Origin: Leucoraja ocellata
Lineage: Eukaryota
Direction: 5' to 3'
DNA: 64,000 nucleotides
Assembly (NCBI GenBank): GCA_036785375.1
Contig: JAWMAR010000892.1
Coordinates: 310,001-374,000 of the forward strand
Within the stretch, counting starts at the first letter, position 1, and each line of letters begins with the position of its first letter. Below the pieces are notes generated by a model, which ran no database searches, had not been told where the DNA came from, and was given only the letters and a program-made list of their open reading frames with translations. Positions 1 through 37,892 of the stretch are shown here, piece by piece. The position numbers and the translations under genes were made by a program.

Positions 1-495
1 TTTTTCCCATTTTCTCCACAAATTTATTGTTTCACAAAGAGCAAGCCAAACATTTATCCCCGGCGGTTTGAAACAAGGCCTTCGACCCGATCTGAGACGA
101 CACTCTTAAATCAAACAACCCCTTCCCTGCTGTTCCCCGAAGAGCCTCCATTTTTCTGGAGCGTCACCATAATGGTCCCCCCCTCACCTACGATGCGGCC
201 ACCTGGGTGAGGGGTTCCTCCAGGTACTGGACTAAAGCCTCGGCCTTAGCCTGCAACATGCCGAATCCCACGGTCTCACGGGCGTACATACAGCAGCAGG
301 TTGGCCATCCTCGTGTTGGCCACTTGGCCCTCCATGCACTCCATGAGGATGAACCAGAGCGGGTCCTCGTTGAAGGCCATGTGCCCGTTCTTGGCGTACG
401 CTGCCCAGATGTTGCTGGCGATGGCGGCCGTTACCTGAGCGTCAGTGTTGCTGTAACCAGCGTAGGCCAGCAACGAACCCTCATTGTTCAACATC
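1..495 (-). pseudogene. LAMTOR2: Processed LAMTOR2 (p14/ROBLD3) retrocopy, copy 1: coding part 188-495 plus 3'UTR, poly(A) starting at window edge
   Basis: Minus strand encodes (M)[67 protein letters not shown]. After a 2-nt deletion it continues [33 protein letters not shown] (stop 188-190), matching LAMTOR2 residues ~24-125. No introns; AATAAA at 23-28 (minus); T-run at 1-5. Confidence 0.93.
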
Positions 496-1420
496 GTCCT
501 TCTAAACTCCACAGAGTACAGGCCCAGTGGAGGAGTAGGCCATTCGGCCCTTCGAGCCAGCACTGCCATTCAATATGATCATGGCTGATATTCCATAATC
601 AGTACCCCAATCCGGCTTTTTCCCCATATCCCTTGATTCCCTCAGCCCAAAGAGCTAAATCTAACTCACTTGAAAGCATCCAGTGAATTGGCCTCCACTG
701 CCTGCTGTGGCAGAGAATTCCACTGATTCACAACTCTCTGGGTGAAAAGTTTTTCCTCATCTCAGTCCTAACAGGCCAATCACTTATTCTTATACTGTGA
801 CCCCTGGTTCTGGACACCCCGAACACGTGGAATAGTGCTGCATCTAGCCTGTCCAAACCTTTAAGAATTTTATATGTTTCTATATGATATCCTCTCATCC
901 GTCTAAATTCCAGCGAATACAAGCCCAGTCGACCCATTCTTTCATCATATGTCAGTCCCGCCATCCCGGGAATTAACCTGGTGAACCTACGCTGCACTCC
1001 CTCATTAGCAATAATATCCTTTCTCAAATTAGGAGACAAAATTGCACACGATACTCCAGGTGCGGTCTCACCAGGGCCCTATACAACTGCAGTAGGACCT
1101 CCTTGCTCCTAAACTCAGATCCTCTCGCAATGAAGCTTTCTTCACTGCCTGCTGTATCTGCATGCTTACTTTCAGTGACTAATGTACAAGCACACGCAGG
1201 TCTCGTTGCACCTCCCCTTCTAAACTTGACAACATTCAGATAATAATCTGCCATCCTGTTCTTCCACCAAAGTGGATAACCTCACATTTATCCACATTAT
1301 ATTGCACCTGGCCATTCACCCAACCTATCCCAAATCACCCTGCAGCCACATAGCATCCTCCTTGCAGCTCACAGTGCCACCCAGCTTTGGGTCATCCGCA
1401 AACTTGGAGATTGCATTTAA
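496..1420 (-). mobile_element. Degenerate CR1 LINE 3' fragment (ORF2 C-terminus and 3'UTR), copy 1
   Basis: ORFs 1024-1254 and 728-1039 carry CR1 motifs LYRALVRPHLEY, EGVQRRFTRLIPGM and LGLYSLEFRRMRG; CR1-type 3'UTR at 510-720. Confidence 0.85.
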
Positions 1421-1957
1421 CTCCCTCGTCTGCTGCCCTTATCTCTACTCCAGCTCCCCACGGGCCTCCACCAGCAACTCCGCCGACCCCCGCCTCTCCA
1501 CCGGCCACCAGTGGGTTAGAACCGTCACCTCACCAGAGTTCCAGCACCAGGCCCACAACCTCCACCATGCAGACAGCACGTGGTCTGACTCTGCTGGGGC
1601 CTAGTGCTCTCCCCACACCTCCCCTTACAGGGAAAACCCATCAGTGGTGATGACTCTGCTGGGTCCTAGTGCCCCCCCCCCCCTCCTACACGGAAGACCC
1701 ATACAGGAAATTCCCAGCCCCTCTCCTTCAGCTCCCGGGCCCCCTTTTGGACTCCGGGCCCGGGTATGATGTACCCCCAGCAACCCCCCGCTCATAGGCC
1801 CTGTGTATACGTACACGCATATGTGAACAAAACACTGTGTGTGGTATGTATCTTTGTTAGGTTCCTAAAAATGAGCTCAACAAATTGATGTTATTTACAA
1901 CCACTTCATGACCACCGGAAAAACCCCAAACGACCCCCATGTGGGTCACGACTCCCA

Positions 1958-2907
1958 GGTTAAGACCCTTGCAAACCTCCAGACTCTCTTTGCAAATCCA
2001 CACTCTGCAAAGAGGTGGGCAACCGTCCCCTCTCCATAGCAGCCGTCCCGAGGGCAGCGTGCGCTGGTAGTGAGGATCCGACGGTGCAGGAAGGATCTGA
2101 CTGAGAGGGCTCCCCTCACCGCCAGCCAAGCCAGGTCTTGGTGCTTGTTGGGGAGTTCTGGCGATGAATCATTTTGCCAGACAAGCTGGGCAGTCTGCTC
2201 TGGGAACCACGCCACCGGATCCATGGAGTCATTTCCCTGCAGTGCCTGCAGGACATTCCGTGCTGACCACTTGTGGTCAAAGGTGTTGGTCCGGAAGAAG
2301 CTTTCCACAGGCGACAGATGGGGCGGCAATGTCCAGCTGACTGGCACATTGCATGGCATCTGCGCCAGGCCCATCCTTCGCAACACCGGGGACAGGTAGA
2401 ACCTCAGCAGGTAGTGACACTTGGTGCCCACGTGCCTTGGCTCTACACTCCGCCTGATGCAGCCACACACAAAGGTGGCCATCAGGGTGAGGGCGACGTT
2501 GGGCAAGTTTTTACCCCCGTTGTCTGGTGACTTGTACATTGTGGCCCGTCGCACCCGGTCCATCCTTGACCCCCAGATGAACTGGAAGACGGCCCGGGTG
2601 ATCCCTGTGGCGTAGGAGGGAGGGACAGGCCACACCTGCGCCAAGTACAGCAGCCCCAAGAGCACCTCACACCTGATGACCACATTTTTCCCCATTATAG
2701 AGGAATGTGCTTCCACAGCTCCAGTTTTTTCCCACCTTGGCTATCCGCTCCAGCCAATTCTTGTCACACGCCTCAACCCTCCCCCCGAGCCAGATCCCCA
2801 GCACCTTCAAGAAGTCAGGCTTGATGGTGAAGGAGAATGCAGATCAGTTGGGCCAGTTGCCAAAGAGCATGGCCTCGCTCTTCCTGCGGTTCACCCTGGC
2901 TCCGAGG
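1958..2907 (-). mobile_element. Tx1-clade (possibly Keno-like) non-LTR retrotransposon ORF2 C-terminal fragment
   Basis: ORF 1946-2716 (GKNVVIRCEVL..LLYLAQVWP..FQFIWG..QDLAWLAVRGAL..CPRDGC..TVAHLFAEC) is the post-RT/zinc-knuckle region typical of Tx1 elements. Homology breaks after FAKRVWR. Confidence 0.8.
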
Positions 2908-3904
2908 TATGTAAATAGTCGCCCACAAAGGACACTGACGAAGTTACAAATTCCCCCCTGCGTCAGATGCCCCTTTGTTCTTCCCCCTCCCCCTCATGGC
3001 GATCCCCCCATGCCAAGTCATCCTTTGTTCATTTCCCTTCCCTTTCCAGCTGAACCATGTTGCCACCCTTCTTCAGACCCAAACCAACCCAAAATATTAG
3101 GTGTCCATTCCCTCCACTGATGCTGCCTGACCCGCTGAGTTCCTCCAGCACTTTGCCCCTAGTGTATAGGATATAGAACTAGTGGTCAAAACACTCCAGT
3201 GATTTGCTCAAGATTCCACAACTGCAGTTCCTTGTGTCTCCATTACACCAACAGAAGGAAACACAACAAACTACAGCTGCTGGAATCTTACATCGAACAA
3301 ACGGTGGTGGAGTAACTCAGTGGGTCAGGCAGCACCTGAGGAGGGAAAGACAGATGACCTTTCGGGTTGAGCCCCTTCTTCAGACTCGTAGCACAGGAAA
3401 GGTGATTTGCAGTTCCTTCTTACACCCTGACTCGATCGCAGTTACCTGCAGTTCCACTTTACACCAACAGATGTCCCGCATGTCGCCGGGGGTCCGTTGC
3501 AGGTCTGGGTAAGTGAGGCCTGAAGTTCAGGGAGTGTAGATGTGAGTTCCGCATGTACAGGCGCTGGTGCTGGGAGGCAGCAGCACTACCTGCTGTGTCA
3601 CTGTGCTGCCCCCTTAGATAACAGAACCAGTGTGAACCGATGGTCGACGTGGACTTGATGGGCCAAAGGGCCTATTTCTAAGCTGTGCCTCTCGAATAAA
3701 GGGTCTTGACCCAAAAAATCGTCTGCCCTTTCCCGCCACAGATGGAAAGCCGCTGAGTTCCTCCAGCACTTTGTGTTTTGGATCTGTTGGTGTAAAGTGG
3801 GACTAACCTTGGCTGTGATAACGAGGAACTCTGTAAAGAGTAAAATGTAGAATTATGGGGAGTCATTGCAGTGTGAAAGGAGACCAGTCGGCACATTGAG
3901 CACA

Positions 3905-4333
3905 CCTCCTATACAGCATGGAAACAGGCCCTTCAGCCCAACTTGTCCACACCGGCCAACATGTCCCAGCCATGCTCGTCCCACCGGCCTGCAATTGGTC
4001 CATATCCCTCCAAACCTGTCCTATCCATGTACCTGTCTAACTGTTTCTTATACGTTGAGATAGTCCCTGCCTCAACTACCTCCTCTGGCAGCTCTTTCCA
4101 TACACCCACCACCCTTTGTGTGGAAAAAGTTACCCCTCAGATTCCTATAAAGTCAGTGAATATATGAATAAGTGAATATATTTAAGGCAGAGATAGATTC
4201 TTGATTAGTACGGGTGTCAGAGGTTATGGGGAGAAGGTAGGAGAATGGGATTAGCAGGAAGAGATAGATTAGCCATGATGGAATGGTGTAGATTTGATGG
4301 GCTGAATGGCCTAAATCTGCTCCTATTATTTAT
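3905..4333. mobile_element. CR1 3'-end fragments (minus 3905-4150, plus 4160-4333)
   Basis: CR1 3'UTR-like text; the plus-strand tail resumes at 8664 after the L1 insertion. Confidence 0.6.
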
Positions 4334-7300
4334 TTATTTATTTTATTATCATTTTTTAAAAATTTTATAAGAAGTTAATACAGCACAAAACAGTACAGTG
4401 GCACCTAATTTTAGGTGCCAACTATGTAATACCGTAATCCATTCTATGTACAACCTCTAGTTTTATGTTATAAGAAGGAAGTAAGCCGAACAAGAAAAAG
4501 AAAACAATAGAAAGGGGAAAAAGTGGAAAAATAGATGGTAGAGTAGAAAAACGTGAAGTGTGTATATAAAAAATAAAAAAAGGAAGAGAGAAAGTGGAAA
4601 GTAGAAATAGAAGAGAAGGCCCCTTAAAAGAGAATTTTTCAAATCTGTATTCGGAGATGTAACTCTATCCGCGTCATGAACTGAAATCAGCAATCCTTAC
4701 GGCACCGCTGCATCACATGATTCCAAAAAGTCGATGAAAGGAGACCAACTCTTTAAGAATTGGTCATATTTATCTATTAGTCGGAGTCTCATTTCTTCAA
4801 GGCGTGCTATGTCCATCATATTCCTAATCCACATTTTAACAGTTGGTGTGGTTGTATTTTTCCAAAATTTAAGTATCAATTTCTTTCCAATTATTAACCC
4901 ATAATTAAAAAAAACATTTTGATCTTTATTTAAATTGGTATCTTCTCCTATTATTCCAAATATAATCCATTCCGTTTTAGGTTCTATTCTTGACTTGAAA
5001 ATCTTTGTAAATATATCAAATATATCACTCCAAAATTTATTCAACTTTGTACATCCAGCAAATGAGTGTGTTATATTAGCGTTTTGAAACAAACATTTAT
5101 CGCATCTGGGAGAGACGTTTGGATAAAATTTATTCAACCTCGTTTTTGAATAATATAGTCTATGTAATAATTTGAATTGAATTAAATTATGTCTTGCATT
5201 AATAGAACAGTTATGTGTATTCATCAAATACTTTTCCCATCTATCCTTCGAGATCTTTATCATTAACTCTTGTTCCCAATCTTCCCTTAATGCTTCTGTT
5301 GAGGGTGATTCTCTATTTAATATATTATTATAAAAGTATGATATTAATTTTTGTGAATCAGCCTTAATATTCATTGCTTCTTCTAAAGGATCTAAAAATA
5401 TAGTTTGAAATCTATGTGTATATTTCTTCATAAAGTCACATACCTGTATATATTTAAAATATTGATTATCCTTCAATTTAAATTTTAATTTTAATTGTTG
5501 AAATGATAACAGTTTGCCCACTTCATACATGTCCCCTACTTTCCTAATCCCCAGTCTATCCCATTGTTGATATGTGTTGTCAATGAGAGAAGGTTTGAAT
5601 GCGGGGTTGTTCAATAGTGGAGTTAGTACTGATAAATTATTTAATTTCAAGGATACTTATATTTGTTTCCAAATTCTTATTATATTGTGAATAATTGTGT
5701 TCTTCTTATATATTATACTATTCAATTTTATCGGTGAGAGCAGGATCGTTCCTATATCGTGCGGATAGCACTCCTCTTTCTCCATTCTTATCCACTCCAA
5801 CTGCTGAGTGGAACTATCCAGCCAGTATATTATGTTCTTAATATGCACTGCCCAGTAGTAATATATAAAGTTAGGTAATGATAAACCCCCAACTTCTTTA
5901 GATTTGCACAAATGCTTTCGTTGAATTCTATGTGTTCTGTAGTCCCATATAAAATTAGTGATAGTGGAATCTAATTTTTTGAAGAAATATTTTGGAATAT
6001 ATATTGGGATCGCTTGAAACAAATATATTAATTGTGGTAAGAAAGTCATTTTTATAGCGTTAATTCTACCTATCAATGAGAGTGGAAGCGTTTTCCAAAA
6101 TTTAATCGTATCATTCAGTTTATTTAATAGTGGTGTAAAATTGGCACTAAATAATGATTTGTGTCTTCTCGTAATTTGAATACCCAGGTACTTGAATTTT
6201 TCTGTTGCAATTTTGAAGGGGAATTTTAGTAAGTGTCTCGAATCTTGTGGATTTAAAGACATAATTTCGCTTTTATTCCAATTTATTCTATATCCTGAAA
6301 AAGAGCCGAATTCCTCAATTAGTGTTAATAAGGTGGGTATACTCGTTTGTGTATTAGTAATATATAAAAGGATATCATCAGCGTATAATGAAATTTTATT
6401 CTTTGAGTCCTTACTGTTATATCCGTGAATATTCGGGTGATTTCTAATCCTTTCGGCCAGCGGTTCTATCATAAGGGCAAATAGCAATGGTGATAAGGCA
6501 CACCCTTGCCTATTACCCCTTGATAAGTAAAATTTTGGAGATAGCGTATTGTTAGTTAATATTCTTGCCGTAGGTCTATCATAAAGTAGTTTAATCCATC
6601 TAATAAAATTCTCTCCCATATTAAATTTTTGGAGTACCTTGTATAAATACTGCCATTCTACTTGATCAAATGCCTTCTCTGCATCCAACGTGACCACTGA
6701 GATATCTTCATTGTCCTTCTTATGAGAGTACATTATATTAAAAAGCCTTCTCAAATTATTAAATGATTGTCTTTTGGGTATAAATCCCGTTTGATCCGTA
6801 TTTATTAAATTGTTAATATAATTATTTAGCCTTCTAGCTAGAATCTTTGCTAAAATTTTCTGATCCGTATTTAGAAGTGATATAGCTCTATAAGAACCAG
6901 GCTCATCTAAATCTTTATCTTTTTTTGGTATAAGCGTTATTGTTGCTTCTGCTAGGGTTTCTGGTAGTTTATTTTCAGTAAAAGCCTGCGTGTATAAGTT
7001 AAATAATCTTGGTACAATTGACTCCTGAAATCTTTTATAAAATTCATTACTAAAGCCATCTGGTCCTGGGGTCTTCCCATTTTTCAATGAGTTTATTATT
7101 AGTTTTATTTCTTCACTAGTAATACGTGCTCCTAATTGCTCTTGTTCTAAATTATCCAATTTTGGCAGCTTGCAATTATCTAAAAAATTTGTAATTTTAC
7201 TTACATCTGTCTTTATTTTGGATGTGTATAAATTATGATAAAATTGGGCAAACCTCTTATTAATATCCTTAGGCAATGTTAGAAACTCACCCTTGTCCGA

Positions 7301-8663
7301 TTTAATTTTTGTAATAGTTTTTTCCTTTTCTCGTTGCTTCAGTTGCCTCGCAAGCAGTTTATGTGGCTTATCCCCAAATTCGAAGTGAGCTTGTTTTGTA
7401 ATTTGGAATAATCTTATTACTCTAGCCGATAATATTCTATTGACTTTATATTTCAGTAAAGTTATCTTATTATGTTTATTTATGGTTGGGTCAGTTGCAT
7501 TGTCCAGTTCTAGTAATTTTATCTTCTGTTCTATCCGCTGAAGTTCTCTTTTATTTTCCTTATTTTGAAAACTTTGGTAAGAGATTATGACACCGCGAAT
7601 ATATGCCTTGAAGGTTTCCCACAATAGCAGTGCAGAAATACCCGGTGTGTCATTTATTTCGAAAAAAAGGTTTGTTTGTTCTTTTATATACTCATAACCC
7701 TGCGGGTTATTTAATATGTGTGCATTGAACCTCCAAAAAGGCTTTATACTCGGCATTCCCTCAATTTTAAGTATAAAAGTCAATGGTGAGTGATCAGAAA
7801 TAATACTATTATGATATGAAGGTTTATTCGTATACGGGATCAATTTTGTGTCCAGTAAGAAATAGTCAATTCGCGAATAAGTTTTGTGAACTGATGAATA
7901 AAATGAGTATTCCCTACCACTTGGATTTGCTATTCTCCAAACATCAGCTATGTTATTATTTTTTATATAAGTATTTAAAAATTCACAGGTCTTGGTTTTA
8001 ACAAGACGCTTCCCTAGCTTTATTGATTTATCTAAATATGGATCTATAACACAATTGAAATCTCCCCCCATTATTATATTTTGAAAATTATGCTCTGCGA
8101 TTAAATCTATTATTTTCCTAAAAAATTGTGGGTTATCAAAATTAGGCGCGTAAATATTTATCATGGTTAATGGTGTATTGTAAATTTCTCCTGTGACTAT
8201 AACATATCTTCCCTCTTTATCAGATATGGAATTCTTTAATTTAAAAGGTATGCCCTTCCGAATTATAATGGCCGTGCCTCTTGCTTTAGAGGTGAATGAG
8301 GAGTAATAGGTTTGACCTATCCAATTTGCCCTTAATCTGAACTGAGTTTGTTGTTTCAAATGTGTCTCTTGTAAGAACGCAATATCCATATTTAATGATT
8401 TTAATTGTGCTAGAATTTTACCTCTTTTAATTGGCTCATTCGCACCTCTGATGTTCCAACTACAGAAGGTGAGACCTCCGGTATTTATTCGACTATTATC
8501 TTGCATTGGCTATTATTACCAGATTGTATTCTTCATGTGATGCAGCCAAGTACCTCAGAATCCCGAATCCAGAGTTGTCCTTCATAATTTCTACAATAGT
8601 TCTACATCTCCTGACATTATTAAACATAATTGAGGGGAAGAGAAAAACATAAAATAAAGTGTA
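4334..8663 (-). mobile_element. 5'-truncated L1-clade LINE with complete ORF2 and 17-bp TSD
   Basis: TSD CTGCTCCTATTATTTAT at 4317-4333 and 8664-8680; A-rich tail at the left end; truncated in the inter-ORF spacer. Confidence 0.95.
4697..8506 (-). pseudogene. L1 ORF2 (APE endonuclease, RT, zinc knuckle), ~1269 codons with one in-frame stop
   Basis: Motifs SWNIRG, FLQETH, GDFN, SRIDY, SDH (APE); QGCALSP, LYADD (RT); CDKC..THSFAGC. ORFs 5657-8506 and 4697-5650 are in the same frame, separated by TAA at 5657-5659. Confidence 0.93.
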
Positions 8664-8899
8664 CTGCTCCTATTATTTATGATCTTATGGGTGACGTTTC
8701 GGGTCAAGACCCTTCTTCAGACTGATTCAGGTCTCGGCCCGAAACGTCACCCATTCCTTCTCTCCAGAGATACAGCCTGTCCTACTGAGTTACTCCAGCA
8801 TTTTGTGTCTGTCTTCAATTTAAACCAGCATCTGCAGTTCTTTCCTGCACACTTATGATCTTATACCAGGCCCGTACGAAGCGTTCCAAAAAGGAGGGG

Positions 8900-10420
8900 G
8901 GAGAGTCCTACACAATCATAAACGCACACATATTCTTTTACATATTAAATATTGGAAGGAAAAACGTTCAGTAAAGTTAGTCCCTGGTGAGATAGGACTT
9001 TACAGTCTGAATGGCCTCTGGGAAGAAACTTCTTCTCAACCTCTCCGTTCTCACAGCATGGCAACGGAGGCGTTTGCCTGACCGTAGCAGCTGGAACGGT
9101 CCGTTGCAGGGGTGGAAGGGGTCTCCCATGATTTTAATGGCTCTGGAGTTGCACCTCCTGATGTATAGTTCCTGCAGGGGGGCGAGTGAAGGCTCTGCAA
9201 AGAGTCATAAAGACTGCAGAGAGGATTATCAGAACGGAACTCCCCTCCATGGATACAATCAATACACAGCGCTGTCAAAAACGAGCAGAGAGAATCATCA
9301 GAGACACACTACATCCAGCTCACTCCCTGCTCAAACACAAAAACTGCACATACAACCTCAGGCACAGACGAGCGGACAGCATCGTCACAAACAGAACACG
9401 CTTTTTTAAGAGCTTCTTCCCTGCCACAGTGAGACTCTTGGCCAAAACAAAATGAACTGATGTCCTGACCTACCTCATAGCACATCATATTATATTATAT
9501 TATATTGTCTCCTGGGCCTGTGCAATTTAAAATGCAATCGACACTTTTTTATATAGGGTTTGTGTAATTTACAATGCTCTCACTTTCCCCTTTATATAGG
9601 GTTCTAGGCATTTTCTTTCTTTTTTAGTTCTAAAGAAGTATATGTTTTTATAGATTATGTGTCTTCTGTGTGTCTTTTTAACTTGACTTGACTTGACTCT
9701 CTGAACAACCGCACAAGAGTTCCTATGTGTGTAAGCACAAATGGCAAATAAAGTTTTTGACCTTTGAAGTTCCCATAGTGCGTTCGGCCGAATGCACTAC
9801 TCTCTGCAGAGCATTCTTGTCCTGGGCAGAGCAGTTCCCAAAACAGATGGTAATATTTCCGGACAAGATGCTTTCCACAGCCGCTGAGTAGAAGCACTGG
9901 AGGATCCTCGGAGACACTCAGAATTTCCTCAATTGCCCGAGGTGGTAAAGGCGCTGCCTTGCCTTACTCACGAGTGCTGCGGCGTGTGATGTCCATGTCA
10001 TATCCTCAGAGATGTGGACTCCCAGATATTTAAAACAACTCACCCTATCCACAGTATCCCCATTTATCCTCAATGGTGTGTACGTCCTCGGATGATGTGC
10101 CCTCCTAAAGTCCATGATCAGCTCCTTAGTTTTTTTGATGTTCAAGAGGAGGTTGTTATCCTGGCACCAGTACCTGGGGCCTGGCGGTGAGAAAGTCCAG
10201 GGCCCAGGCACACAGGGAGGGTGTTGAGCCCTAATTCCAGTAGCTTCCCGGCAAGTCTGGTGGGGACTATCGTGTTGAAGGCTGAACTGAAGTCTATGAA
10301 CAGTATCCTCACATAGCCCCCCTTCTGGCTGTCAGGATGAGAGAGAGCGGTGTGCAAAACCTGGGAGACCGCATCGTCCGTGGATCTGTTCGGACGGTAT
10401 GCGAACTGCAATGGGTCCAT
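8900..10420. mobile_element. Cluster of rearranged Rex1-like LINE fragments (minus 8900-9185 and 9770-10420; plus 9186-9700)
   Basis: Minus pieces are near-identical to parts of the 13240-14870 element ([29 protein letters not shown]). The plus piece encodes ALQRVIKTAERII..HPAHSL. Confidence 0.8.
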
Positions 10421-10879
10421 GAGTATAGGCCCAGTGCCGTCAAAGATTCCTCTGAGACGATCTGTTAACGGTCACTGTTAAGCGCTTGTTAAATGTCACT
10501 ATTATCACCATATTAACACGATGTGAGGGAGAGAGAGACGAGGGCGGGCTGTTGCCTTTTGACCTCACATTAGAGAATCCAATGCTCACACCATCTTTGC
10601 GTTGGGGTGGGTCCTGATCGCTTGGGGCGAGCACAAATCGAAAGGTTTCAAAAAGGAGTGAACCCTGTGAGGTGAGGCCTGCCAGCCTGCGTCTCACAAA
10701 TACAGGCAAGGCAGCCCCTCCAAGGGAAGCACAGCCACTGAGCCATTGTAATGACACAGAGAAAAAAAGCAAACAAACAAAAAGGTGTGAACGGCTCCGT
10801 CTCATCTCCTTCAGTTGCAAATTCTGGCAAACACAACACCCCCACCGTGGCTTTCAGCATTCCTTGCAACTGGGATGGT

Positions 10880-11206
10880 TTTCTCTCGCCCCCTAGGAAC
10901 AGGGATTGTTTCATTTGCTTGTGTGCATGTATAAAATCGACATCTTTGCGCAATTTCTGTTGGTCTTGGTAAGAAGTGAGCATGTAAAGCCTCCTTACAT
11001 TCCTTGTTCGTTTTACTAGCCGGCTTAGCTGGCTGCAGCAATGCCCTTAGGGTGTGATAACCCTTGCTTCCTATGGAACAATGCTCTTTGCTTCTCTTCT
11101 GTAGTGATATCATTTGAAGTGAACCAAGCCTCTAAGACTTTGGTCCATTCCTCAAAGTATAACCAGATTCTAACTGGGGCACATTCCCTACTATTAGATT
11201 AGCCAT
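10880..11206 (-). mobile_element. Mag-type Ty3/Gypsy gag remnant
   Basis: ATG at 11206 (MANLIVGNVP..), then frameshifted SIGSKGYHTLRALLQPAKPASKTNKECKEALHAHFLPRPTEIAQRCRFY, the Mag gag N-terminal pattern. Confidence 0.65.
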
Positions 11207-11283
11207 GGTTACACTGTTGCTACTCAGGCACACAACGTGCCGTCCTCTGGCACAATGTTCTCTGCAATGGACTTAATTCCTTT

Positions 11284-12391
11284 TAGGCTGTGGGCCGAGG
11301 AGCTTTATTCCGCAGTTTCGTGACCCAAGTCACCAAACTACATGAAATTTTCACATATTGTGTAAAAAAAATTATATAAATCACCCCTGAAACTCGATAT
11401 GAAGAAGACTTGCACATTTTTATTAAATTAGAGAAAAACAGGAAACATTTCGGGTATTTTTTAGTCCAATCAAAGCACGTTTAACATTGAGTTGTCTGCC
11501 AGTTGGCCAATCACACGCTTTGTTTCAGGTTAGAACACAAAATGGCTGAGGGGGCTCCACAGATGCCTGTTTTACTGGAGATTCCGATTTGTTGTTCTGT
11601 GGAAACTTGCAGCAGGTAATTGTATTTAGTGGGAAAAGCATTAAAAAGGCTGAAGAAAGTGCTGCTAAGTTGATGGAAGTGTTGAAAGTGATGGAAGTCT
11701 TGAAAGCAAAGTCCCTGTTGAGGTCCTGGAACACAATGATTAAGAGCCAGGAACCAACTCTAACTAAAAGGTAAGATCTAAAGTCTGAATTTATGAAAAT
11801 CTATCTGTATGGAGTTTAATTAATTTAATTGCACCCTTTTATAATGTGAATAAATTCATTCATTCACTTACTTCATTCATGAAGTTGAGGGCCTAAACTA
11901 TATGTGTCCATAACAATCAATTAAATATTGTCACTAATGCCAGCCTGTTGTACAGTAATAAGTCTTTAACAGCTAATCTCGGAGCTGCCTGCGAAAACGT
12001 ACCGGGAAAAAGTGCTCCGATCGCGGGACATAGGTACTCGCGGTAAAGTGAAGCCGCGGTCTCAATTAATAAGCGGCCGATTCGCGAACGCGGAGCCGTG
12101 GATCGTCTCCGCGGGCGGGTGTGGGAGGCTGTACATAGTGCCGTCTATAGCGGCCGTTATCAGACCCCGACAACGGGAAAAAAACGGAATGGAATTCCAC
12201 TGAAATGGAAGCCTATAAATAGCAATCGATATCCCTCCGTTTTTTTTCCCGTTGTCGGGGTCTGATAACGAGTTTCAGGGGTGATTTATATAATTTTGTT
12301 TACACAATATGTGAAAATTTCATGTAGTTTGGTGACTTGGCTCACAAAATCCTTTTTCTAGACACATTTTTGATGCTCGGCCCACAACCTA
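11284..12391. mobile_element. Non-autonomous DNA transposon (~1.1 kb) with long terminal/subterminal inverted repeats
   Basis: Ends TAGGCTGTGGGCCGAG (11284) and CTCGGCCCACAACCTA (12391); ~75-bp inner inverted arms at about 11320-11396 and 12269-12345. Confidence 0.75.
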
Positions 12392-12807
12392 TTTCCAAAA
12401 ATCACTGAGCAGTTATCCAGTAAATTTACTACTAATAATCCTCTTATACTAATCGATTTATACTAATATACCATTGGTGGCGGTTCGGCCGTGGGCTGCA
12501 CGGCACTGGACACTCACTCGACGTCGGTGGCGATTACTGGACTTGGCCGTGGGCTGCACGGCACTGGAAAGCGTTTAAATTAAGCAACCGCCGTCATTGT
12601 TCTGCTTGCTGGGATTCTAGTTTCTAGCTTCTAGCTGCGCTGCCCCGCTACAGCACTGCTTGTTGCCTGGCCATCGTGCGTTACCGTTCCAACTTTTTGC
12701 CTGCCAAATACATACTTGTCTTTAACTATCTGTTTGATCTTGAGAAAAGCCTCAAAATGATCGCAATTCTGTTCCTGCTAACGGAATTTACACCCTCGTC
12801 TCCAAAT

Positions 12808-13042
12808 TGTTATGTATTGGTGCTGGAAACTGACTTAAATAAGACTCGGAACACACAGGTATTTAACAAGCTTCTTGTATTGAAATTGCCATCTTGAGTC
12901 TCTCTGCACATGCGTACAATTGCACAAGACATTCCAATATGCTAATCATATTCTCATACACAACATTTCCCCATCATAAATCCATGCTGACATCTCCACT
13001 GGGCACAGGAACACAGGTTCCGTAGCCCGACCAGGGATTGCA
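12808..13042 (-). mobile_element. Single Gypsy LTR (~235 bp) flanked by a PPT and a PBS
   Basis: Minus strand TGCAAT...ATAACA, preceded by purine tract AGGAAAGGAGAGGGGAAGAAA and followed by PBS-like TGGAGACGAG (12795-12804), then a leader leading to the gag remnant. Confidence 0.55.
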
Positions 13043-13239
13043 TTTCTTCCCCTCTCCTTTCCTTAGCCTAGCTTTCCAATTAAGTCCTGAAGACTTCTTG
13101 CAAACACGTGAGAGGCTTTGAAAAGTTGCTCACCTGGCCTTGCCTTTCCCCTTCACCAGCCAGCCAGCCATCCAGCTGCTTGCTGCCTCTCCTCCTCAGC
13201 CTTAAACCTGACTCGTGACAAATCCTTAAAGGCCTTGTC

Positions 13240-14870
13240 ATTACCTCTGGTGCCACCGAAGCCGAAGGGAGGAATGTGCACACATTCTCGCTGTCCGAGC
13301 ACGACGTGAGGAGGGCTCTGACACGGGTGAACACGAGAAAAGCTGCAGGCTCCGATGGCATCTCGGGGCGAGTACTCAAGTCCTGTGCTACGCAGCTAGC
13401 TCCAGTGCTCACTACATTATTCAACCTCTCCCTGGACAAGTCCGTGGTCCCTGCCTGCTTCAAAAAATCCATCATTGTACCGGTACCAAAAAATGCCTCC
13501 CCAGCCTGTCTGAATGACTACCGTCCGGTGGCCCTTACCTCGGTAGTCATGAAATGCTTTGAGAGGCTGGTGAAGAATCATATCTGCCCCTTCCTCCCTC
13601 GGAACATGGACCCATTGCAGTTCGCATACCGTCCGAACAGGTCCACGGACGATGCGGTCTCCCAGGTCTTGCACACCGCTCTCTCCCATCTGGACAGCCA
13701 GAAGGGGGGCTACGTGAGGATGCTGTTCATAGACTACAGTTCAGCCTTCAACACGATAGTCCCCACCAGACTGGCCGGGAAGCTAATGGAATTGGGGCTC
13801 AACACCTCCCTGTGTGCCTGGGTCCTGGACTTTCTCACCGCCAGGCCCCAGGTAGTCAAGATGGGAGGGAATACATCGGAGTCCCTCACCCTGAGCACAG
13901 AATCGCCCCAGGGTTGCGTCCTCAGCCCCCTATTGTACTCCCTGTACACACATGACTGTGTGGCTAGGTTCAGCTCCAATTCAATAATTAAGTTTGCTGA
14001 TGACACTGTGGTGGTGGGCCTGATCTCAGACAACGACGAGAAGGCCTACCGGGAGGAGGTGGCTGATCTAGCACTCTGGTGCCAGGATAACAGCCTCCTC
14101 TTGAACATCAAAAAAACGAAGGAGCTGATCATGGACTTTAGGAGGGCAAATCATCCGAGGACGTACACTCCATTGAGGATAAATGGGGATCCTGTGGATA
14201 GGGTGAACTGTTTTAAATATCTGGGAGTCCACATCTCTGAGGATATGACATGGGCATCACACGCCTCAGCACTCGTGAGTAAGGCAAGGCAGCGCCTTTA
14301 CCACCTCAGGCAATTGATGAAATTCAGAGTGTCTCCGAGGATCCTCCAGTGCTTCTACGCAGCGGCGGTGGAAAGCATCTTGTCCGGGAACATTACCATC
14401 TGGTTTGGGAATTGCTCTGCCAAGGACAAGAAGGCTCTGCAGAGAGTAGTGCGTTCGGCCGAACGCACTATGGGAACTTCACTCACCCCCCTGCAGGAAC
14501 TATACAACAGGAGGTGCAACTCCAGAGCAAACAAAATCATGGGAGACCCCTTCCACCCCTGCAACGGACTGTTCCAGCTGCTACGGTCAGGCAAACGCCT
14601 CCGTTGCCTGCGGTGAGAACAGAGAGGTTGAGAAGGAGTTTCTTCCCAGAGACAATTCGGACTGTAAACGCCTATCTCACCAGGGACTATCTCTACAGAA
14701 TGTTTTTCCTTCCACTATTTATTATGTAAAAGAATATGTGTGTTATGATTGTGTTTATAATTTGTTTGGTTGTTTTGTTGTTTGTCTTTTGCACAAAAGT
14801 CTGCGAGCATTGCCACTTTCATTTCACTGCACATCTCGTACGTGTATGTGACAAATAAATTTGACTTGAC
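13240..14870 (+). mobile_element. 5'-truncated Rex1/Babar-like LINE; RT ORF 13276-14616
   Basis: [50 protein letters not shown]; 3'UTR ends AATAAATTTGACTTGAC. Confidence 0.9.
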
Positions 14871-14909
14871 TAGACCCACGCACCCTCCGACCCATCCAGG
14901 CACACTAGC

Positions 14910-14910
<1 letters not shown>

Positions 14911-14955
<45 letters not shown>
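14911..14955 (+). repeat. (ACAG)n microsatellite
   Basis: About 11 tandem ACAG units. Confidence 0.95.
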
Positions 14956-15141
14956 GGCCTTGTCAATACACAGCCGACAGCACAGTGCGCCGGCCGCCCT
15001 CCAGACCACGCTCCCAGAACGTGCGGTCAGGGCTTCTGTCGGGGGGACGGGTCCGCCACATTGACCAAACCATGGCTGGCCCTCCGGCTGCTCAATGGTG
15101 CTAAATTCACCCCTGCCCCCGTCAGAGTCAGTGAGTCCTAC

Positions 15142-15330
15142 CTTAGCGGTGTGGTACTCGCTGTGGTTGACGTGCAGCTCAGTCTCATCTCTTCAGACCA
15201 ACATCACCCCGATTGTGGCGACTTGATTGGCAGAGTCGACAATTGTGACTTTGAAGAATTTGCTGAAGATTTTTTTCTCCTTCAGGAAGTTTGGGTTGAA
15301 ATGCGTCCTCTTTTCCCTTGAACGTATCCA
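15142..15330 (-). pseudogene. Candidate orphan 189-nt exon of an unidentified gene, one in-frame TGA
   Basis: Acceptor CCTTCCTTTATTTCACCAG, donor AAG|GTAGGA, length 63 codons: WIRSREKRTHFNPNFLKEKKIFSKFFKVTIVDSANQVATIGVMLV*RDETELHVNHSEYHTAK. No family recognised. Confidence 0.3.
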
Positions 15331-15470
15331 CTGGTGAAATAAAGGAAGGTTGACTTGAGCATTTGACTTGAGCAGTCCGTCAACACAGACACGCACGCAC
15401 ACAGACGCAGAGTGAGAGAGGGCAGCAGGCAGACACGCAGCTTTTGAGCAAGCGTGAGGAGGAATTTTTG

Positions 15471-15485
15471 TCTTTTCTTTTGAAC
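15471..15485 (-). terminator. snRNA 3' box-like element
   Basis: GTTCAAAAGAAAAGA about 21 nt downstream of the U2 3' end resembles the 3' box consensus GTTYN(0-3)AAARNNAGA. Confidence 0.55.
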
Positions 15486-15506
15486 TTTGAAAATCTCCCA
15501 AAAGGG

Positions 15507-15657
15507 AAGTGCACCGTTCCCAGAGGCACTGCAATACTGGGTCGATGCGTGGAGTGGACGGAGCAAGCCCCTATTCCATCTCCCTGTTCCAAAAATCAAT
15601 TTAATATATGGTCCCTAGATAAGGGACGTATCAGATATTAAACTGATAAGAACAGAT
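15507..15657 (-). ncRNA. RNU2: U2 snRNA gene, nt 38 to 3' end only (first 37 nt replaced by an insertion)
   Basis: Minus strand ATCTGTTCTTATCAGTTTAATATCTGATACGTCC...ATTTTTGG (Sm site)...GCTTGCTCCGTCCACTCCACGCATCGACC...ATTGCAGT...GAACGGTGCAC matches vertebrate U2 from A38 onward. Confidence 0.97.
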
Positions 15658-16169
15658 TTTTTTTTCTTTTTTCTTTTACCCCATTATCTCCACACATTTA
15701 TTGTTTCACAAAGAGCAAGCTAAACATTTATCCCCGGCGGTTTGAAACAAGGCCTTCGACCCGATCTGAGACGACACTCTTAAATCAAACAACCCCTTCC
15801 CTGCTGTTCCCCGAAGAGCCTCCATTTTTCTGGAGCGTCACCATAATGGTCCCCCCCTCACCTACGATGCGGCCACCTGGGTGAGGGGTTCCTCCAGGTA
15901 CTGGACTAAAGCCTCGACCTTAGCCTGCAACATGCCGAATCCCACGGTCTCACGGGCGTAGATACAGCAGCAGGTTGGCCATCCTCGTGTTGGCCACTTG
16001 GCCCTCCATGCAGTCCATGAGGATGAACCGGAGCGGGTCCTCGTTGAAGGCCATGTGCCCGTTCTTGGCGTACGCTGCCCAGATGTTGCTGGCGATGGCG
16101 GCCGTTACCCGAGCGTCAGTGTCGCTGTAACCAGCGTAGGCCAGCAACGAACCCTCATTGTTCAACATC
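15658..16169 (-). pseudogene. LAMTOR2: Processed LAMTOR2 retrocopy, copy 2 (coding part 15862-16169), poly(A) abutting U2 nt 38
   Basis: Same peptide and same 2-nt deletion as copy 1; AATAAA at 15697-15702; A-rich tail about 15657-15677. Confidence 0.93.
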
Positions 16170-17710
16170 GTCCTTCTAAACTCCACAGAGTACAGGCCCA
16201 GTGGAGGAGTAGGCCATTCGGCCCTTCGAGCCAGCACCGCCATTCAATATGATCATGGCTGATATTCCATAATCAGTACCCCGATCCGGCTTTTTCCCCA
16301 TATCCCTTGATTCCCTCAGCCCAAAGAGCTAAATCTAACTCACTTGAAAACATCCAGTGAATTGGCCTCCACTGCCTGCTGTGGCAGCGAATTCCACTGA
16401 TTCACAACTCTCTGGGTGAAAACGTTTTTCCTCATCTCAGTCCTAACAGGCCAATCACTATTCTTATACTGTGACTCCTGGTTCTGGATGCCCCCAACAC
16501 AGGGAATAGTGCTGCATCTAGCCTGTCCAAACCTTTAAGAATTTTATATGTTTCTATATGATATCCTCTCATCCTTCTAAATTCCAGCGAATACAAGCCC
16601 AGTCGACCCATTCTTTCATCATATGTCAGTCCCGCCATTCCGGGAATTAACCTGGTGAACCTACGCTGCACTCCCTCATTAGCAATAATATCCTTCCTCA
16701 AATTAGGAGACAAAATTGCACACGATACTCCAGGTGCGGTCTCACCAGGGCCCTATACAACTGCAGTAGGACCTCCTTGCTCCTAAACTCAGATCCTCTC
16801 ACAATGAAGCTTTCTTCACTGCCTGCTGTATCTGCATGCTTACTTTCAGTGACTAATGTACAAGCACACTCAGGTCTCGTTGCACCTCCCCTTCTAAACT
16901 TGACAACATTCAGATAATAATCTGCCATCCTGTTCTTCCACCAAAGTGGATAACCTCACATTTATCCACATTATATTGCACCTGGCCATTCACCCAACCT
17001 ATCCCAAATCACCCTGCAGCCACATAGCATCCTCCTTGCAGCTCACACTGCCACCCAGCTTTGGGTCATCCGCAAACTTGGAGATTGCATTTAACTCCCT
17101 CGTCTGCTGCCCTTATCTCTACTCCAGCTCCCCACGGGCCTCCACCAGCAACTCCGCCGACCCCCGCCTCTCCACCGGCCACCAGTGGGTTAGAACCGTC
17201 ACCTCACCAGAGTTCCAGCACCAGGCCCACAACCTCCACCATGCAGACAGCACGTGGTCTGACTCTGCTGGGGCCCAGTGCTCTCCCCACACCTCCCCTT
17301 ACAGGGAAAACCCATCAGTGGTGATGACTCTGCTGGGTCCTAGTGCCCCCCCCCCACAGGGAAGACCCATACAGGAAATTCCCAGCCCCTCTCCTTCAGC
17401 TCCCGGGCCCCCTTTTGGACTCCGGGCCCGGGTATGATGTACCCCCAGCAACCCCCCGCTCATAGGCCCTGTGTATACGTACACGCATATGTGAACAAAA
17501 CACTGTGTGTGGTATGTATCTTTGTTAGGTTCCTAAAAATGAGCTCAACAAATTTATGTTATTTACAACCCCTTCATGACCACCGGAAAAACCCCAAACG
17601 ACCCCCATGTGGGTCACGACTCCCAGGTTAAGACCCTTGCAAACCTCCAGACTCTCTTTGCAAATCCACACTCTGCAAAGAGGTGGGCAACCGTGTCCTC
17701 TCCATAGCAG
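15675..17710 (+). repeat. Direct duplicate of 1-2042 (LAMTOR2 + CR1 + unassigned segment + Tx1 tip)
   Basis: Colinear near-identity at offset ~15,674; homology ends at 2042/17710 (..CTCCATAGCAG). Confidence 0.95.
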
Positions 17711-18024
17711 GCTACTAATTAATCACCTGGACAGGAGTAAGTACAACCTTGCATTAGTTTCCTTGCCACTGGCTGCTCACTCTGACTGCTGTGCACATCA
17801 CCCATGATGAACTTCACCAGAACTGTGCCGTGCAAGGTCCTGGCCACAGACATAACATGTGCAGGAAAGAACTACAGATGATGGTTTAAATCGAAGATGG
17901 ACATGAAATGCTGGAGTAACTCTGCGGGACAGGCAGCATCTCTGGAGAGAAAGAATGGGTGACGTTTTGGGTCGAGACCCGTCTGCAGATGTCTGAAGAA
18001 AGGTTTCGACCTGAAACATCGCCC

Positions 18025-18238
18025 TGTAATGCGTGGGTCCCAAAATGAGGCAAGTAGTCTGAAGTTTGAGAAGCACTTTACTTTATTTCCTCCCGGTTCA
18101 GGGGAAGACGAAACCAGGGAAAGATGGCACCCAAACCCTGCCTTTTATACCCTCCGGCTAAGGACCGCCTCCGGACTGCGCCACTCCTGTGCCGAGGGGT
18201 TCGGCAGTATAATGGCACGACCCTTAGGAGCCGCCACA
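18025..18238 (-). repeat. 3' LTR
   Basis: Two visible mismatches versus 22404-22617; TATAAAA and AATAAA on the minus strand. Confidence 0.95.
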
Positions 18239-18239
18239 G

Positions 18240-21200
18240 GACCCCCCCCAGAACCAGAAGCACAAAACGCACCGGCGGGCGCACGACCCGGCCGGCCCGC
18301 GTGCGGAAGTCAGCAGATCCCGGGGCTTGCGGGGGCGTAGGTGGAGGGACAGGTCGAGGGGCCGGTGGGAGGACAGGTGGAGTGACAGGTGGAGGGAGTC
18401 GTGAGGGGGGGCGCCCTCGGGGCCGGGGTTGAGCAACCAGCACCGGCTGATCAATGTCCAGGCGCGCTGGCTTTAAACGGTCAATCGACTCGGCCTCCGG
18501 CCGGCTCCCCATGTCCAGGACAAAAGTCAACTGCCCGTGTTCCAGCACCCGGAACGGGCCCTCGTACGGCCTCTGGAGTGGCGTCCGGTGGGCATCACGG
18601 CGCAGGAAGACGTATGGGCAGTCCGTGAGGGCCATTGGCACGTGTGGGCGAAATGTCCCATGGCGGGACGTCGGGACGGGTGCGAGCCTGCCAACTCGCT
18701 CGCGAAGCCGTTGAAGGGTGGAGGAGGGCGTTTCCTGCTGCTCCGGCGCAGACGGCACGAACTCCCCGGGCACTGTGAGTGTCGACCCGTACACAAGCTC
18801 CGCCGATGATGAGGCCAAGTCTTCTTTGGGAGTGGTCCGGATGCCCAGCATGACCCACGGCAACTCGTCCATCCAGTCCGGGCCGGTGAGTCGCGCCTTC
18901 AATGCCGCCTTCAGCTGCCGGTGGAACCTCTCCACCAGACCGTTAGCCTGCGGGTGGTAAGCCGTGGTGTGGTGCAGCTGCACCCCCAGCAAGCGAGCCA
19001 TGGCTGACCACAGCTCGGAGGTGAACTGTGGCCCCCGGTCGGAGGAGATGTGCGCCGGCACCCCGAAGCGAGCAATCCAGTGCGCGGACAACGCACGAGC
19101 ACACGTAGCCGATGAGGTGTCAGCCAACGGAATGGCCTCCGGCCACCGCGTGAAGCGGTCCACCATGGTCAAAAGGTGGGTGATGCCCCGGGACGGTGGA
19201 AGGGGCCCCACAATGTCCACGTGGAGATGGTCGAACCGCCGGTGAGGTAGACTGAACTCCTGGAGAGGTGCGCGGACATGGCGCTGGATTTTTGCCGTCT
19301 GGCACGGGATGCAGGTGCGAGCCTAATGGGCAACTTGCTTGCGCAGACCGTGCCACATGAAGCGAGCTGCCACCAGTGCCGTTGTCGCCCGGATCGATGG
19401 GTGAGCCAGTCCGTGGATGACCTCGAACACTCTCCGGCGCCAGGTGGCAGGGACGATGGGGCGCGGCTGACCGGACGACACATCGCACAGGATTGTCACA
19501 ACCCCAGGACCGAGAGGGACATCCTCAAGACGGAGGCCGGAGATGGCAGTCCGGTAGGTGGGCACCTCGTCGTCCGTGAGCTGTGCCGCCGCCAGAGCAG
19601 AATAGTCCATTCCGGGCGCCACCTCGAACACGGCATTTATAGCAGGGCGGGACAATGCGTCGGCCACCCGGTTCTCTTTCCCCTTGACGTAGCAGATGGC
19701 TGTGGTGTACTCGGAGATGTAAGCCAACTGCCGCTGCTGACGTGCGGACCAGGGGTCGGAAACCTTTTGCAGGGCGAAAGTGAGCGGTTTATGGTCGGTG
19801 TAGGCGGTGAACGGGCGGCCCTCCAGGAAGTAACGAATATGGCGCACAGCCAGGTACAGAGCCAGGAGCTCACGATCGAACGCGCTGTACTTGGTCTGCG
19901 CGCGGTTGAGGTGCCGACTGAAGAAGGCCAGAGGCCGCCAAACTCCGCCTGTCAGCTGCTCCAGTACAGCACCAACTGCCGACTCCGAGGCGTCCACAGT
20001 GAGAGCAGTTGGGGCATCTTCCCGCGGGTGCACCAGCAGCACGGCCCGAGCAAGGGCCTCCTTCGCGCCGTCGAAAGTTGCCTCCGCCTCGTGGGTCCAC
20101 TCAACGCTCTTTTGCTGCCCACCCGCCAGAAGTTGATACAGGGGCCGCATGATGTGGGCCGCGGATGGCACAAAACGATGGTAGAATGCCACCATGCCGA
20201 CAAATTCCTGCAGGCCACGCACCGTGCGTGGGCGGGGAAACCGACGGATGGCGTCAACCCTGTCAGGCAGGGGAACCGCGCCTTGCGCAGTCACGCGGTG
20301 GCCGAGAAAGTCAATTTCGTTGACCCCAAAACGGCACTTGTCCAGGTTGATGGCCAAACCATGCTCGCTGAGCCGCTGACAGAGCTGTCGAAGGTGAGCG
20401 CAGTGTTCCTGCTGTGAGCGGCTGACCACCAGGATGACACGAATTCGAGGTCACGACACACCCCGTCCATGAGGCGCTGAAAGGCCTGTGCAGCGTTTTT
20501 GAGGCCGAACGGCATCCGAGTAAACTCGTAAAGCCCGAATGGCGTGATGATAGCCGTCTTGGGTACGTCATCCGGGTGAACCGGGATCTGATTATAACCC
20601 TGCACCAGATCCACTTTTGAAAAAAATGTGGCCCCAGCCAAATGGGCCGTGAAGTCCTGGATGTGGGGTACGGGGTATCGATCCGCTGTTGTTGCAGCGT
20701 TCAGCCGTCGGTAATCCCCACAAGGTCGCCAGCCCCCGCTTGACTTAGGGACCATGTGGAGTGGGGACGCCCAAGGGCTGCTCGAAGGGCGGACGATCCC
20801 CAAGGCCTCCATCGTGCGGAATTCCCGCCGTGCCAGATGCAGTTTATCTGGTGGCAGTCGTCGTGCTCGTGCATGGAGTGGTGGGCCGGTAGTCGGGATA
20901 TAATGTACAACTCCGTGGCTGGGGGTTGCTGAATGAAACTGCGGAGTGAGAATGTCCGGGAACGCAGCCAAGATTCGTGCGAATCGGGAGTCCACGGCCG
21001 CCAGTGGCCGTCCCACCGGTTGACCCAAGCGCAACGTGATCGGCTCCATTGTAGTGGCGTTGACCAAACGCTGACGCCCGACGTCCACCATGAGGGAATG
21101 CGTCCGGAGAAAATCGGCCCCGAGCAATGGTTGGGAGACGTCGGCAACGGTGAAGTTCCATGAAAAATGGCAGGAGCCGAGCACGATGGGAACCATGCGC

Positions 21201-21410
21201 AGTCCATATGTGCGGATGGGGCTGCCGTTCGCTGTGGTGAGGACGGGCCCCCGCTTACCGGAACGAATGTCGGCCAGCGAAGGGGGCAGGACGCTGAGCT
21301 CCGCTCCTGTATCCACGAGGAAGCGGGTCCCGGAGCGCCGACCCCAAGCGAAAAGGTGGTGAATTTGGCCGGCCACCGCGGGGACTATTGGCAGCCGGCC
21401 CAGGCGTTTC
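18240..21410 (-). pseudogene. Gypsy pol (protease-RT-RNaseH-integrase), disrupted
   Basis: [91 protein letters not shown] deletion at ~20436 removes YxDD and shifts frame; TAG at 19323-19325. Confidence 0.92.
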
Positions 21411-22374: not shown

Positions 22375-22403
22375 GATGCCAATGGAGCGTCGGGGGTCAC
22401 CAA

Positions 22404-22617
22404 TGTAGTGCGTGGGTCTCAAAATGAGGCAAGTAGTCTGAAGTTTGAGAAGCACTTTACTTTATTTCCTCCCGGTTCAGGGGAAGACGAAACCAGGGAA
22501 AGATGGCACCCAAACCCTGCCTTTTATACCCTCCGGCTAAGGACCGCCTCCGGACTGCGCCACTCCTGTGCCGAGGGGTTCGGCAGTATAATGGCACGAC
22601 CCTTAGGAGCCGCCACA
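22404..22617 (-). repeat. 5' LTR
   Basis: Pairs with 18025-18238; followed by the PBS on the minus strand. Confidence 0.95.
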
Positions 22618-22699
22618 GCCCATTCTTTCTGTCCACAGATGCTGCCTGTCCCGCTGAGTTACTCCAACATTTTGTGTCTACCTCCCAGTCTTTTTAATG

Positions 22700-37740: not shown

Positions 37741-37892
37741 CCGGTGTTTCACAACTGTGGTATATCAAGCTGTATCACTAAACTAAACTAAACTAAACTT
37801 CCTAAGTATGCTTACATTTGACAACTTCCACTTGTCACCACCATTGTGTAGTAAGGAACTGCAGATGCTGGTTTACACAGAAGACAGACAAA

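Follow-up and report, generated by a model that had tools for sequence, protein, structure and literature searches.

Two lineages of retrotransposons without long terminal repeats (non-LTR) are known to insert into the gene for the U2 small nuclear RNA (snRNA). One is Keno, a member of the Tx1 clade with an apurinic-type endonuclease (Kojima and Fujiwara 2004, as cited in PMC4640811, PMC4494074 and PMC6136364), and the other is Utopia, which has a restriction-like endonuclease (PMC4640811). The two have the same 3' flank, with U2 resuming at nucleotide 39, and varying 5' junctions (PMC4640811), and the 3' target of Keno is given as a U2 20-mer (PMC6136364). Upstream of Utopia copies in Phytophthora, the 5' part of U2 is missing (PMC4640811). 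Site-specific non-LTR elements such as R1, R2 and SART1 are described as needing their own 3' ends (PMC3747384, PMC3414825), the mobilization of any polyadenylated RNA being described as an exception of mammalian L1 (PMC3747384, PMC7245038). Here, a 64,000-nucleotide stretch of the Leucoraja ocellata genome (assembly GCA_036785375.1, contig JAWMAR010000892.1, positions 310,001 to 374,000; hereafter, the window) is found to hold two copies of a chimeric unit that ends in a copy of the LAMTOR2 mRNA, one of which is joined to a U2 gene at the Keno and Utopia insertion point. It is highly probable that a U2-specific enzyme made this insertion; which enzyme is inferred from the junction and from the known hosts of the two lineages.

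When the window is compared with itself, the two copies appear as one same-strand block of 2038 columns (6-2042 against 15680-17710), 98.1% identical and far above chance, with a spacing of 15.7 kb (n=2 in 64 kb). On the minus strand, both read Tx1 piece, a stretch of ~540 bp, CR1 piece, LAMTOR2, AATAAA and A-tail. The features of the two copies and of the U2 gene are the following (ORF2, open reading frame 2; UTR, untranslated region):

1976..2905, minus strand: Tx1-clade ORF2 fragment of copy 1, from the end of the reverse transcriptase to the zinc finger, broken at both ends (zf-RVT E 2.5e-10; 90% identical to protein P0001, residues 188-433)
1429..1975, minus strand: ~540-bp stretch of copy 1 with an internal direct repeat, 1586-1641 and 1651-1702 (window comparison)
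531..1428, minus strand: decayed CR1 3' fragment of copy 1, minus its last ~25 nt (78-83% to four local CR1 3' ends)
497..530, minus strand: 35-nt internal CR1-like piece of copy 1, between the CR1 end and LAMTOR2 (6-7/35 mismatches to the CR1 coding stretch at 932 / 16606)
188..496, minus strand: processed LAMTOR2 pseudogene of copy 1, codons 24-125 (at 494-188), exons 2-4 joined (PDB LAMTOR2 E 1.5e-30)
1..187, minus strand: putative 3'UTR of copy 1, AATAAA at 28-23 and the first 5 A of the tail (sequence)
17644..17710, minus strand: 65-nt Tx1 remnant, the 5' edge of copy 2 (window comparison)
16171..17643, minus strand: ~540-bp stretch, CR1 fragment and 35-nt piece of copy 2 (alignment with copy 1)
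15862..16170, minus strand: processed LAMTOR2 pseudogene of copy 2 (91% of amino acids as in Rhinoraja exon 2; frameshift common with copy 1)
15657..15861, minus strand: putative 3'UTR of copy 2, AATAAA at 15702-15697 and interrupted A-tail at 15677-15657 (sequence)
15504..15656, minus strand: U2 snRNA gene without the part before nucleotide 39, the insertion target (Rfam RF00004, 118.5 bits, E 2.2e-23)
15473..15485, minus strand: candidate snRNA 3' box, lying beyond the U2 end (one letter off the consensus)
17711..17856, no strand: unique 146 bp upstream of copy 2 (no second match in the window)

Much of this layout had been proposed from the letters alone in an earlier reading of the stretch (the original prediction). 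Its order of pieces agrees with the 98.1% block, and the alignment shows that all piece-to-piece junctions and a frameshift in LAMTOR2 (292-293 / 15966-15967) are common to both copies, as it had said. Its 5' ends also hold: Tx1 homology in copy 1 starts near 2905, close to the ~2907 proposed, and copy 2 stops at 17710, the equivalent of position 2042 in copy 1, with unrelated DNA beyond. Two other claims survive in part. A poly(A) tail, assigned to both copies, is present in copy 2; copy 1 shows just 5 A before the window edge, its 3' flank lying outside the window, such that two 5' ends and one 3' junction (that of copy 2) can be seen. The LAMTOR2 coding region is there from codon 24 to codon 125, without codons 1-23, and the identity of the 3'UTR is presumptive.

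What is the LAMTOR2 piece? From named fish and bird proteins (P0163, P0167, P0154, P0157), exon limits fall after codons 77 and 107: the Chiloscyllium protein model begins at codon 24 and runs into the intron after codon 77, the Ameca and Crotophaga models run into the intron after codon 107, and codons 78-107 are left out of the Rhinoraja X2 isoform. In the window, the sequence runs on over both limits with no gap, introns 2 and 3 being absent. Since the exons are joined without introns, the piece is a copy of spliced mRNA, and the earlier claim that the unit's 3' end is a product of reverse transcription is upheld, and strengthened by the U2 junction described below. Its closest relatives are the LAMTOR2 of named cartilaginous fish; the skate Rhinoraja has 49/54 residues of exon 2 in common with it, and a proline at codon 68 is found in the window and in Rhinoraja and in none of the other four references.

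The LAMTOR2 pieces also date the two copies relative to each other. Compared with the five named references, 8 non-reference residues, as well as the frameshift, are common to both copies, while private ones number 4 in copy 1 and 1 in copy 2 (2 if codon 93 is counted). Non-synonymous decay amounts to 2.6-3.4% per site before the copies split and 0.9-1.7% after, with the proviso that 2 of the 8 common residues may be lineage differences. The common frameshift and residues imply that both copies descend from one already decayed insertion and split long after retroposition. That the chimera arose once, as originally proposed, is thus borne out, and two independent LAMTOR2 mRNA insertions are ruled out by the lesions common to both copies.

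The 165 nt that follow the stop codon would be LAMTOR2's own 3'UTR. There is no visible seam between stop codon and AATAAA, and the tail begins ~20 nt after AATAAA, a distance typical of mRNA. No match was found between the unit's 3' end and the local Tx1, L1 or CR1 3' ends or the 3'UTR of the Tx1 family, nor is there a tRNA head (0 tRNA genes in the whole window). The last 35 nt of the unit (1-35) resemble an L1 ORF2 stretch at 26772-26805 on the minus strand (30/35, E 1.8e-4), probably an A-rich chance likeness. At its other end, the LAMTOR2 piece begins within ~5 nt of the start of exon 2 (chance 1-4%). Splicing of an exonised CR1 to exon 2 was considered as an account of this position and rejected, since the junction letters misfit a clean splice. 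The CR1-like letters just before LAMTOR2 (494-497 / 16168-16171) bear some likeness to the last codons of exon 1, a possible microhomology junction. The original 5' flank of the retrocopy has probably been lost.

Directly after the tail of copy 2 lies U2 (15504-15656), the only family in the window to reach its Rfam gathering score. The tail joins U2 at nucleotide 39 on the same strand, the gene being without its first 37-38 nt, and the exact Keno 3' target 20-mer stands at 15656-15637, its sole match in the window. From nucleotide 38 onward, this U2 part agrees by eye at 34/34 letters with the U2 row in PMC4640811. All 45 of the 45 upper-case consensus letters are kept, and 34/38 model pairs are standard; free folding (z -5.1) recovers stems IIb, III and IV, which has no dating value. 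A word similar to the 3' box follows U2 at 20-odd nt, as would be expected of a genomic gene, weak as it is alone (10 window matches against 6.8 by chance).

Farther downstream, a perfect (GACA)11.5 microsatellite occupies 14910-14955, ~550 bp from U2; primate U2 repeats also contain a microsatellite. At 15139-15329 (minus strand), 180 bp downstream of U2, there is an exon-like stretch with acceptor- and donor-like ends, one in-frame stop and a weak match to MULE transposase (E 0.058).

In the L1 template-switch chimeras described in PMC4494074, the snRNA forms the 5' head. The order here, mRNA, tail, U2, is the reverse, and U2 is therefore the target and not a template. Since the tail meets U2 at the point used by Keno and Utopia, the most likely event is the insertion, by a reverse transcriptase that targets U2, of an RNA with a host mRNA tail. 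Of the two, Keno is the likelier enzyme, being reported from vertebrates including fish, from lancelet and from cnidarians (PMC4640811, PMC4494074), whereas the Utopia host table lists no fish (PMC4640811). No Utopia sequence was seen in the window, and neither copy has a reverse transcriptase with a restriction-like endonuclease or any long open reading frame besides the Tx1 piece. That Tx1-clade enzymes can move A-tailed RNAs other than their own is indicated by SINEU (PMC4494074).

The unit may be set beside several known systems. It is like a Keno insertion, with the same 3' junction 20-mer, the same orientation and a destroyed target, but it is a copy of a host mRNA with no Keno open reading frame or recognizable Keno end, the U2 5' part is absent, and the family to which the upstream Tx1 piece belongs has left a local relic that does not end at U2. 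Utopia (PMC4640811) offers the same junction at U2 nucleotide 39 and, in oomycetes, the loss of the U2 5' part; unlike the unit, reptile Utopia elements make 20-bp duplications. Processed pseudogenes made by L1 (PMC3747384, PMC13320880) are likewise intron-less, 5'-truncated, decayed and furnished with AATAAA and an A-tail, but the unit sits at a site-specific target rather than at an A/T-rich L1 site, and no duplication is found. The SIDEs of R2 and the R2/R1 hybrid SIDEs (PMC3414825) occupy, as non-coding passengers, the target site of a site-specific retrotransposon, as the unit appears to do, but they are multi-copy, with a ribozyme and the partner's 3' end, whereas the unit is seen in two copies and apparently ends in host mRNA. 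Chimeras of snRNA with mRNA or L1 (PMC4494074) also join U2 to retroposed sequence, with the snRNA as a 5' head, while the U2 of the unit is a 3' target with a genomic flank; SINEU, from the same source, is a case of Tx1-clade machinery mobilizing other RNAs in trans. The unit, then, works like a Keno insertion and is not a Keno; by structure it is a processed pseudogene without a target-site duplication.

Where did the pieces upstream of LAMTOR2 come from? The Tx1 piece of copy 1 has 2 frameshifts, 1 stop and a 12-nt deletion. It ends ~100 codons short of the end of P0001, 1.9 kb from the tail, is broken at both ends and has no 3' end of its own. Internally deleted relics of the same Tx1 family are found at 43500-44450 and 51790-52750 (minus strand). 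There, at 43729-44034 and 52033-52338 (one event, duplicated), the family keeps its natural 3' end; the 3'UTR is normal, and U2 does not follow. A relic that ends away from U2 indicates that the Tx1 piece derives from a family of dispersed elements, from which the unit gains no enzyme and no 3' end. As to a place in the Keno lineage, the protein matches carry no Keno label, and the relic that ends away from U2 represents one independent event. The CR1 piece lacks the final ~25 nt by which 4 other local copies reach the natural CR1 end, and is followed by the 35-nt CR1-like piece, for which 20 shuffles gave 0 matches. The ~540-bp stretch has copy 2 as its sole match in the window and no Rfam match at gathering score; one plus-strand frame matched no Pfam family at E 0.5, another had a match at E 0.16, and the best Atlas score, 0.76, is at chance level. 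There is thus no support for it as a coding or RNA gene.

The original prediction had offered template jumps by the reverse transcriptase or stacked insertions as the origin of the chimera. Stacked complete insertions are ruled out, since the 3' ends proper to Tx1 and CR1 are missing from both pieces. A chain of template jumps is disfavoured by the age of the CR1 piece, which is only 54% identical in amino acids to the local CR1 open reading frame and has 6-7 frameshifts and a stop common to both copies. Set against 3 frameshifts in the 1236 nt of Tx1 and LAMTOR2, the 6-7 in 810 nt of CR1 are an excess (P 0.05-0.10, a rough figure with a CR1 reference just 54% alike), and CR1 was therefore probably dead DNA before it was joined. 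An older-looking CR1 favours old genomic debris, joined by deletion or repair, over one chain of template jumps.

The following course of events would account for the locus. A U2-specific non-LTR retrotransposon, most likely Keno, presumably acted in trans on a spliced, polyadenylated LAMTOR2 RNA and reverse-transcribed it; its enzyme would have nicked a U2 gene just before nucleotide 39 and primed on the A-tail of the RNA. The resulting cDNA would have been 5'-truncated, and that U2 gene killed. The 35-nt piece, CR1, the ~540-bp stretch and Tx1 would be older genomic repeat debris brought in by deletion or repair, an event that may also have removed the first 38 nt of U2 and its promoter. After ~3% decay, the locus would have been copied once at the DNA level, either by local segmental duplication or in the mending of a broken U2 gene nearby, with the inserted one as template. 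The 5' edge of copy 2 at 17710 would mark where copying stopped or where DNA was later deleted.

How did the second copy arise? The two copies differ by scattered substitutions at 29/2012 aligned bases (1.44%), and the tandem duplicates of immunoglobulin (Ig) exons in the same window differ at 42/2906 (1.45%) and 51/2649 (1.93%; Fisher P 1.0 and 0.21), which gives the unit an age like that of the local DNA-level duplicates. In Bacillus rossius, degenerate R2 copies multiply by unequal recombination of the target array (PMC4370867). This is a model for copy 2, as a dead insertion in a multicopy RNA gene that is copied at the DNA level, with the difference that it concerns a true R2 in a ribosomal DNA array, while no repeating U2 array is visible in the window. 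If a U2-specific enzyme made the insertion, DNA-level copying is the somewhat likelier source of the second copy. The segmental duplication named as an alternative in the original prediction stands as regards age, but not as a head-to-tail tandem.

Several observations weigh against insertion by a U2-specific enzyme followed by DNA-level copying. There is no Keno element in the window, and no Keno-labelled match in the protein searches. Neither 5' edge shows a target-site duplication, the longest word in common with the 3' flank of copy 2 being 5 nt. The U2 5' part (nucleotides 1-38) and its promoter were found near neither copy's 5' edge in the window; in particular, 17711-17856 has no U2 5' part, no snRNA match at E 10 and no U2 5' motif at 3 mismatches. 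A plain tandem duplication with a 15.7-kb period is excluded, 0 blocks of at least 93% over 60 bp being found between 2043-15659 and 17711-64000, and the Tx1 frame, whole through 2042 and cut at 17710, is the wrong way round for one. Without tandem geometry, one must suppose an additional deletion or an event of another type. The U2 part looks undamaged despite 3.3-4.2% decay in the retrocopy (P 0.03-0.06, rising to 0.13-0.21 when as many as three of the existing non-standard pairs count as lesions), for which conversion from working U2 genes could also be responsible. Finally, 4 differences between the copies fall in the last 23 nt of the unit (post hoc P 4e-4; 0.025 outside the A-run), and the tails differ; A-tails mutate fast. 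With all this considered, insertion of LAMTOR2 RNA by a U2-specific enzyme together with DNA-level copying has about an even chance of being the full account.

Among the other explanations, the strongest is that the second copy was made through RNA, as the original prediction had suggested in proposing a re-mobilized non-autonomous unit. The copy 1 locus would have been transcribed from upstream and polyadenylated at the LAMTOR2 signal, and a Keno-type enzyme would have inserted the chimeric RNA into a fresh U2 gene, with 5' truncation at 17710 and loss of the upstream target DNA. This would explain why copy 2 corresponds to copy 1 from the tail up to an arbitrary point, where unrelated DNA takes over, why the U2 part looks undamaged and younger than the retrocopy, and why the tails differ. 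Loss of the U2 5' part has the Phytophthora Utopia as a precedent (PMC4640811), and R2 makes large upstream deletions, with SIDEs as non-autonomous passengers of site-specific elements (PMC3414825). However, there are two copies alone, local and co-oriented, whose divergence equals that of adjacent DNA duplicates. The tail of copy 2 is interrupted, as in aged tails, and gene conversion could have kept the U2 part clean. No promoter was identified, in a scan of bacterial-type signals that is uninformative here, and no protein of the unit was present among 118 matches (best 91%; weak evidence). Moreover, known SIDEs keep the partner's 3' end (PMC3414825), and that of the unit is unlike the local Tx1, L1 and CR1. 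RNA re-mobilization is thus not shown, and re-insertion is a tentative possibility. That a decayed mosaic with a host mRNA tail and no Keno sequence was re-inserted at least once by Keno-type machinery is equally doubtful, and a true multi-copy, U2-targeted non-autonomous family is decidedly improbable.

The need of site-specific elements for their own ends leads to a further explanation, by which the last 20-165 nt before the tail would be Keno's own 3' end, the enzyme having started at U2 and jumped to LAMTOR2 mRNA and perhaps to further RNAs. R1 and R2 depend on their own 3'UTR, and template jumps by R2 occur in vivo (PMC3414825); Utopia ends likewise have AATAAA shortly before the U2 junction (PMC4640811), and the LAMTOR2 origin of the 165-nt UTR is presumptive. 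Against this stand the lack of a seam between stop codon and AATAAA, the mRNA-like spacing from AATAAA to the tail, the unlikeness of the 165-nt stretch to the 3'UTR of the local Tx1 family and the older look of the CR1 piece; such stringent recognition is improbable. Still less probable is that an ordinary L1 made the retrocopy, the U2 junction being chance, a later tail-to-U2 deletion or an assembly join: the window has two L1 elements, the U2 5' part is missing and the region is heavily rearranged, but the junction is the one nucleotide of ~190 used by two independent U2-specific lineages (PMC4640811), the 3' flank lacks the A-rich sequence expected of an L1 cut, and the 29 scattered differences are unlike a false duplication. 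A 3' transduction from the L1 at 4330-8560 is unlikely, there being no ORF1 match in the window, and L1 would not choose the U2 site.

The surroundings are rich in other repeats. The L1 elements, at 4330-8560 and 24090-30080 (both minus strand), each lie upstream of a unit copy on the same strand, the first without ORF1; that they are old duplicates of one block is ruled out by 77% identity with 287/465 differences at third codon positions, which indicates independent insertions. A near-complete Gypsy-type LTR retrotransposon at 18025-22618 (minus strand) has LTRs that differ at 2/215 bases, a 4-bp target duplication and gag, protease, reverse transcriptase and integrase; its pol is broken near 20440 and 19323, and it splits a repeat just upstream of copy 2. 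A reverse transcriptase-like non-LTR element with a 465-codon open frame lies at 13219-14850 (plus strand), with a rearranged inverted copy at 8910-10421 (minus strand) at 91-95%. Inverted repeats of 85 bp (11316-11400 and 12265-12349; 95% identical) flank ~1 kb that is probably a non-autonomous DNA transposon, and a 740-bp degenerate CT-rich tract runs through 31972-32710. From 37800 to 56070 there are tandem duplicates of 93-97.5% identity, with Ig V-set exons at 38778, 48610 and 55270 and C2-set exons (butyrophilin/CD80-like) at 43007 and ~51400, a B7-like gene cluster.

What would such an insertion mean? Retrocopies occur in all vertebrate lineages and are fewer outside mammals (PMC13320880). 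In the literature covered, neither a LAMTOR2 element nor a retrocopy of any host mRNA at the Keno/Utopia site was found, a weak negative, since Repbase reports, the original Keno paper and most subscription journals lie outside that coverage. Should the second copy be a DNA duplicate, the locus represents one dead insertion that has no function in itself; if Keno-type re-insertion is true, any A-tailed RNA is acceptable to a site-specific Tx1 enzyme. The presence of a host mRNA copy precisely at the Keno/Utopia site would, if true, be natural evidence that a U2-specific enzyme can take cellular mRNA in trans. Such an enzyme would then be a candidate source of retrocopies outside mammals, and the finding would bear on the use of site-specific retrotransposons for gene insertion.

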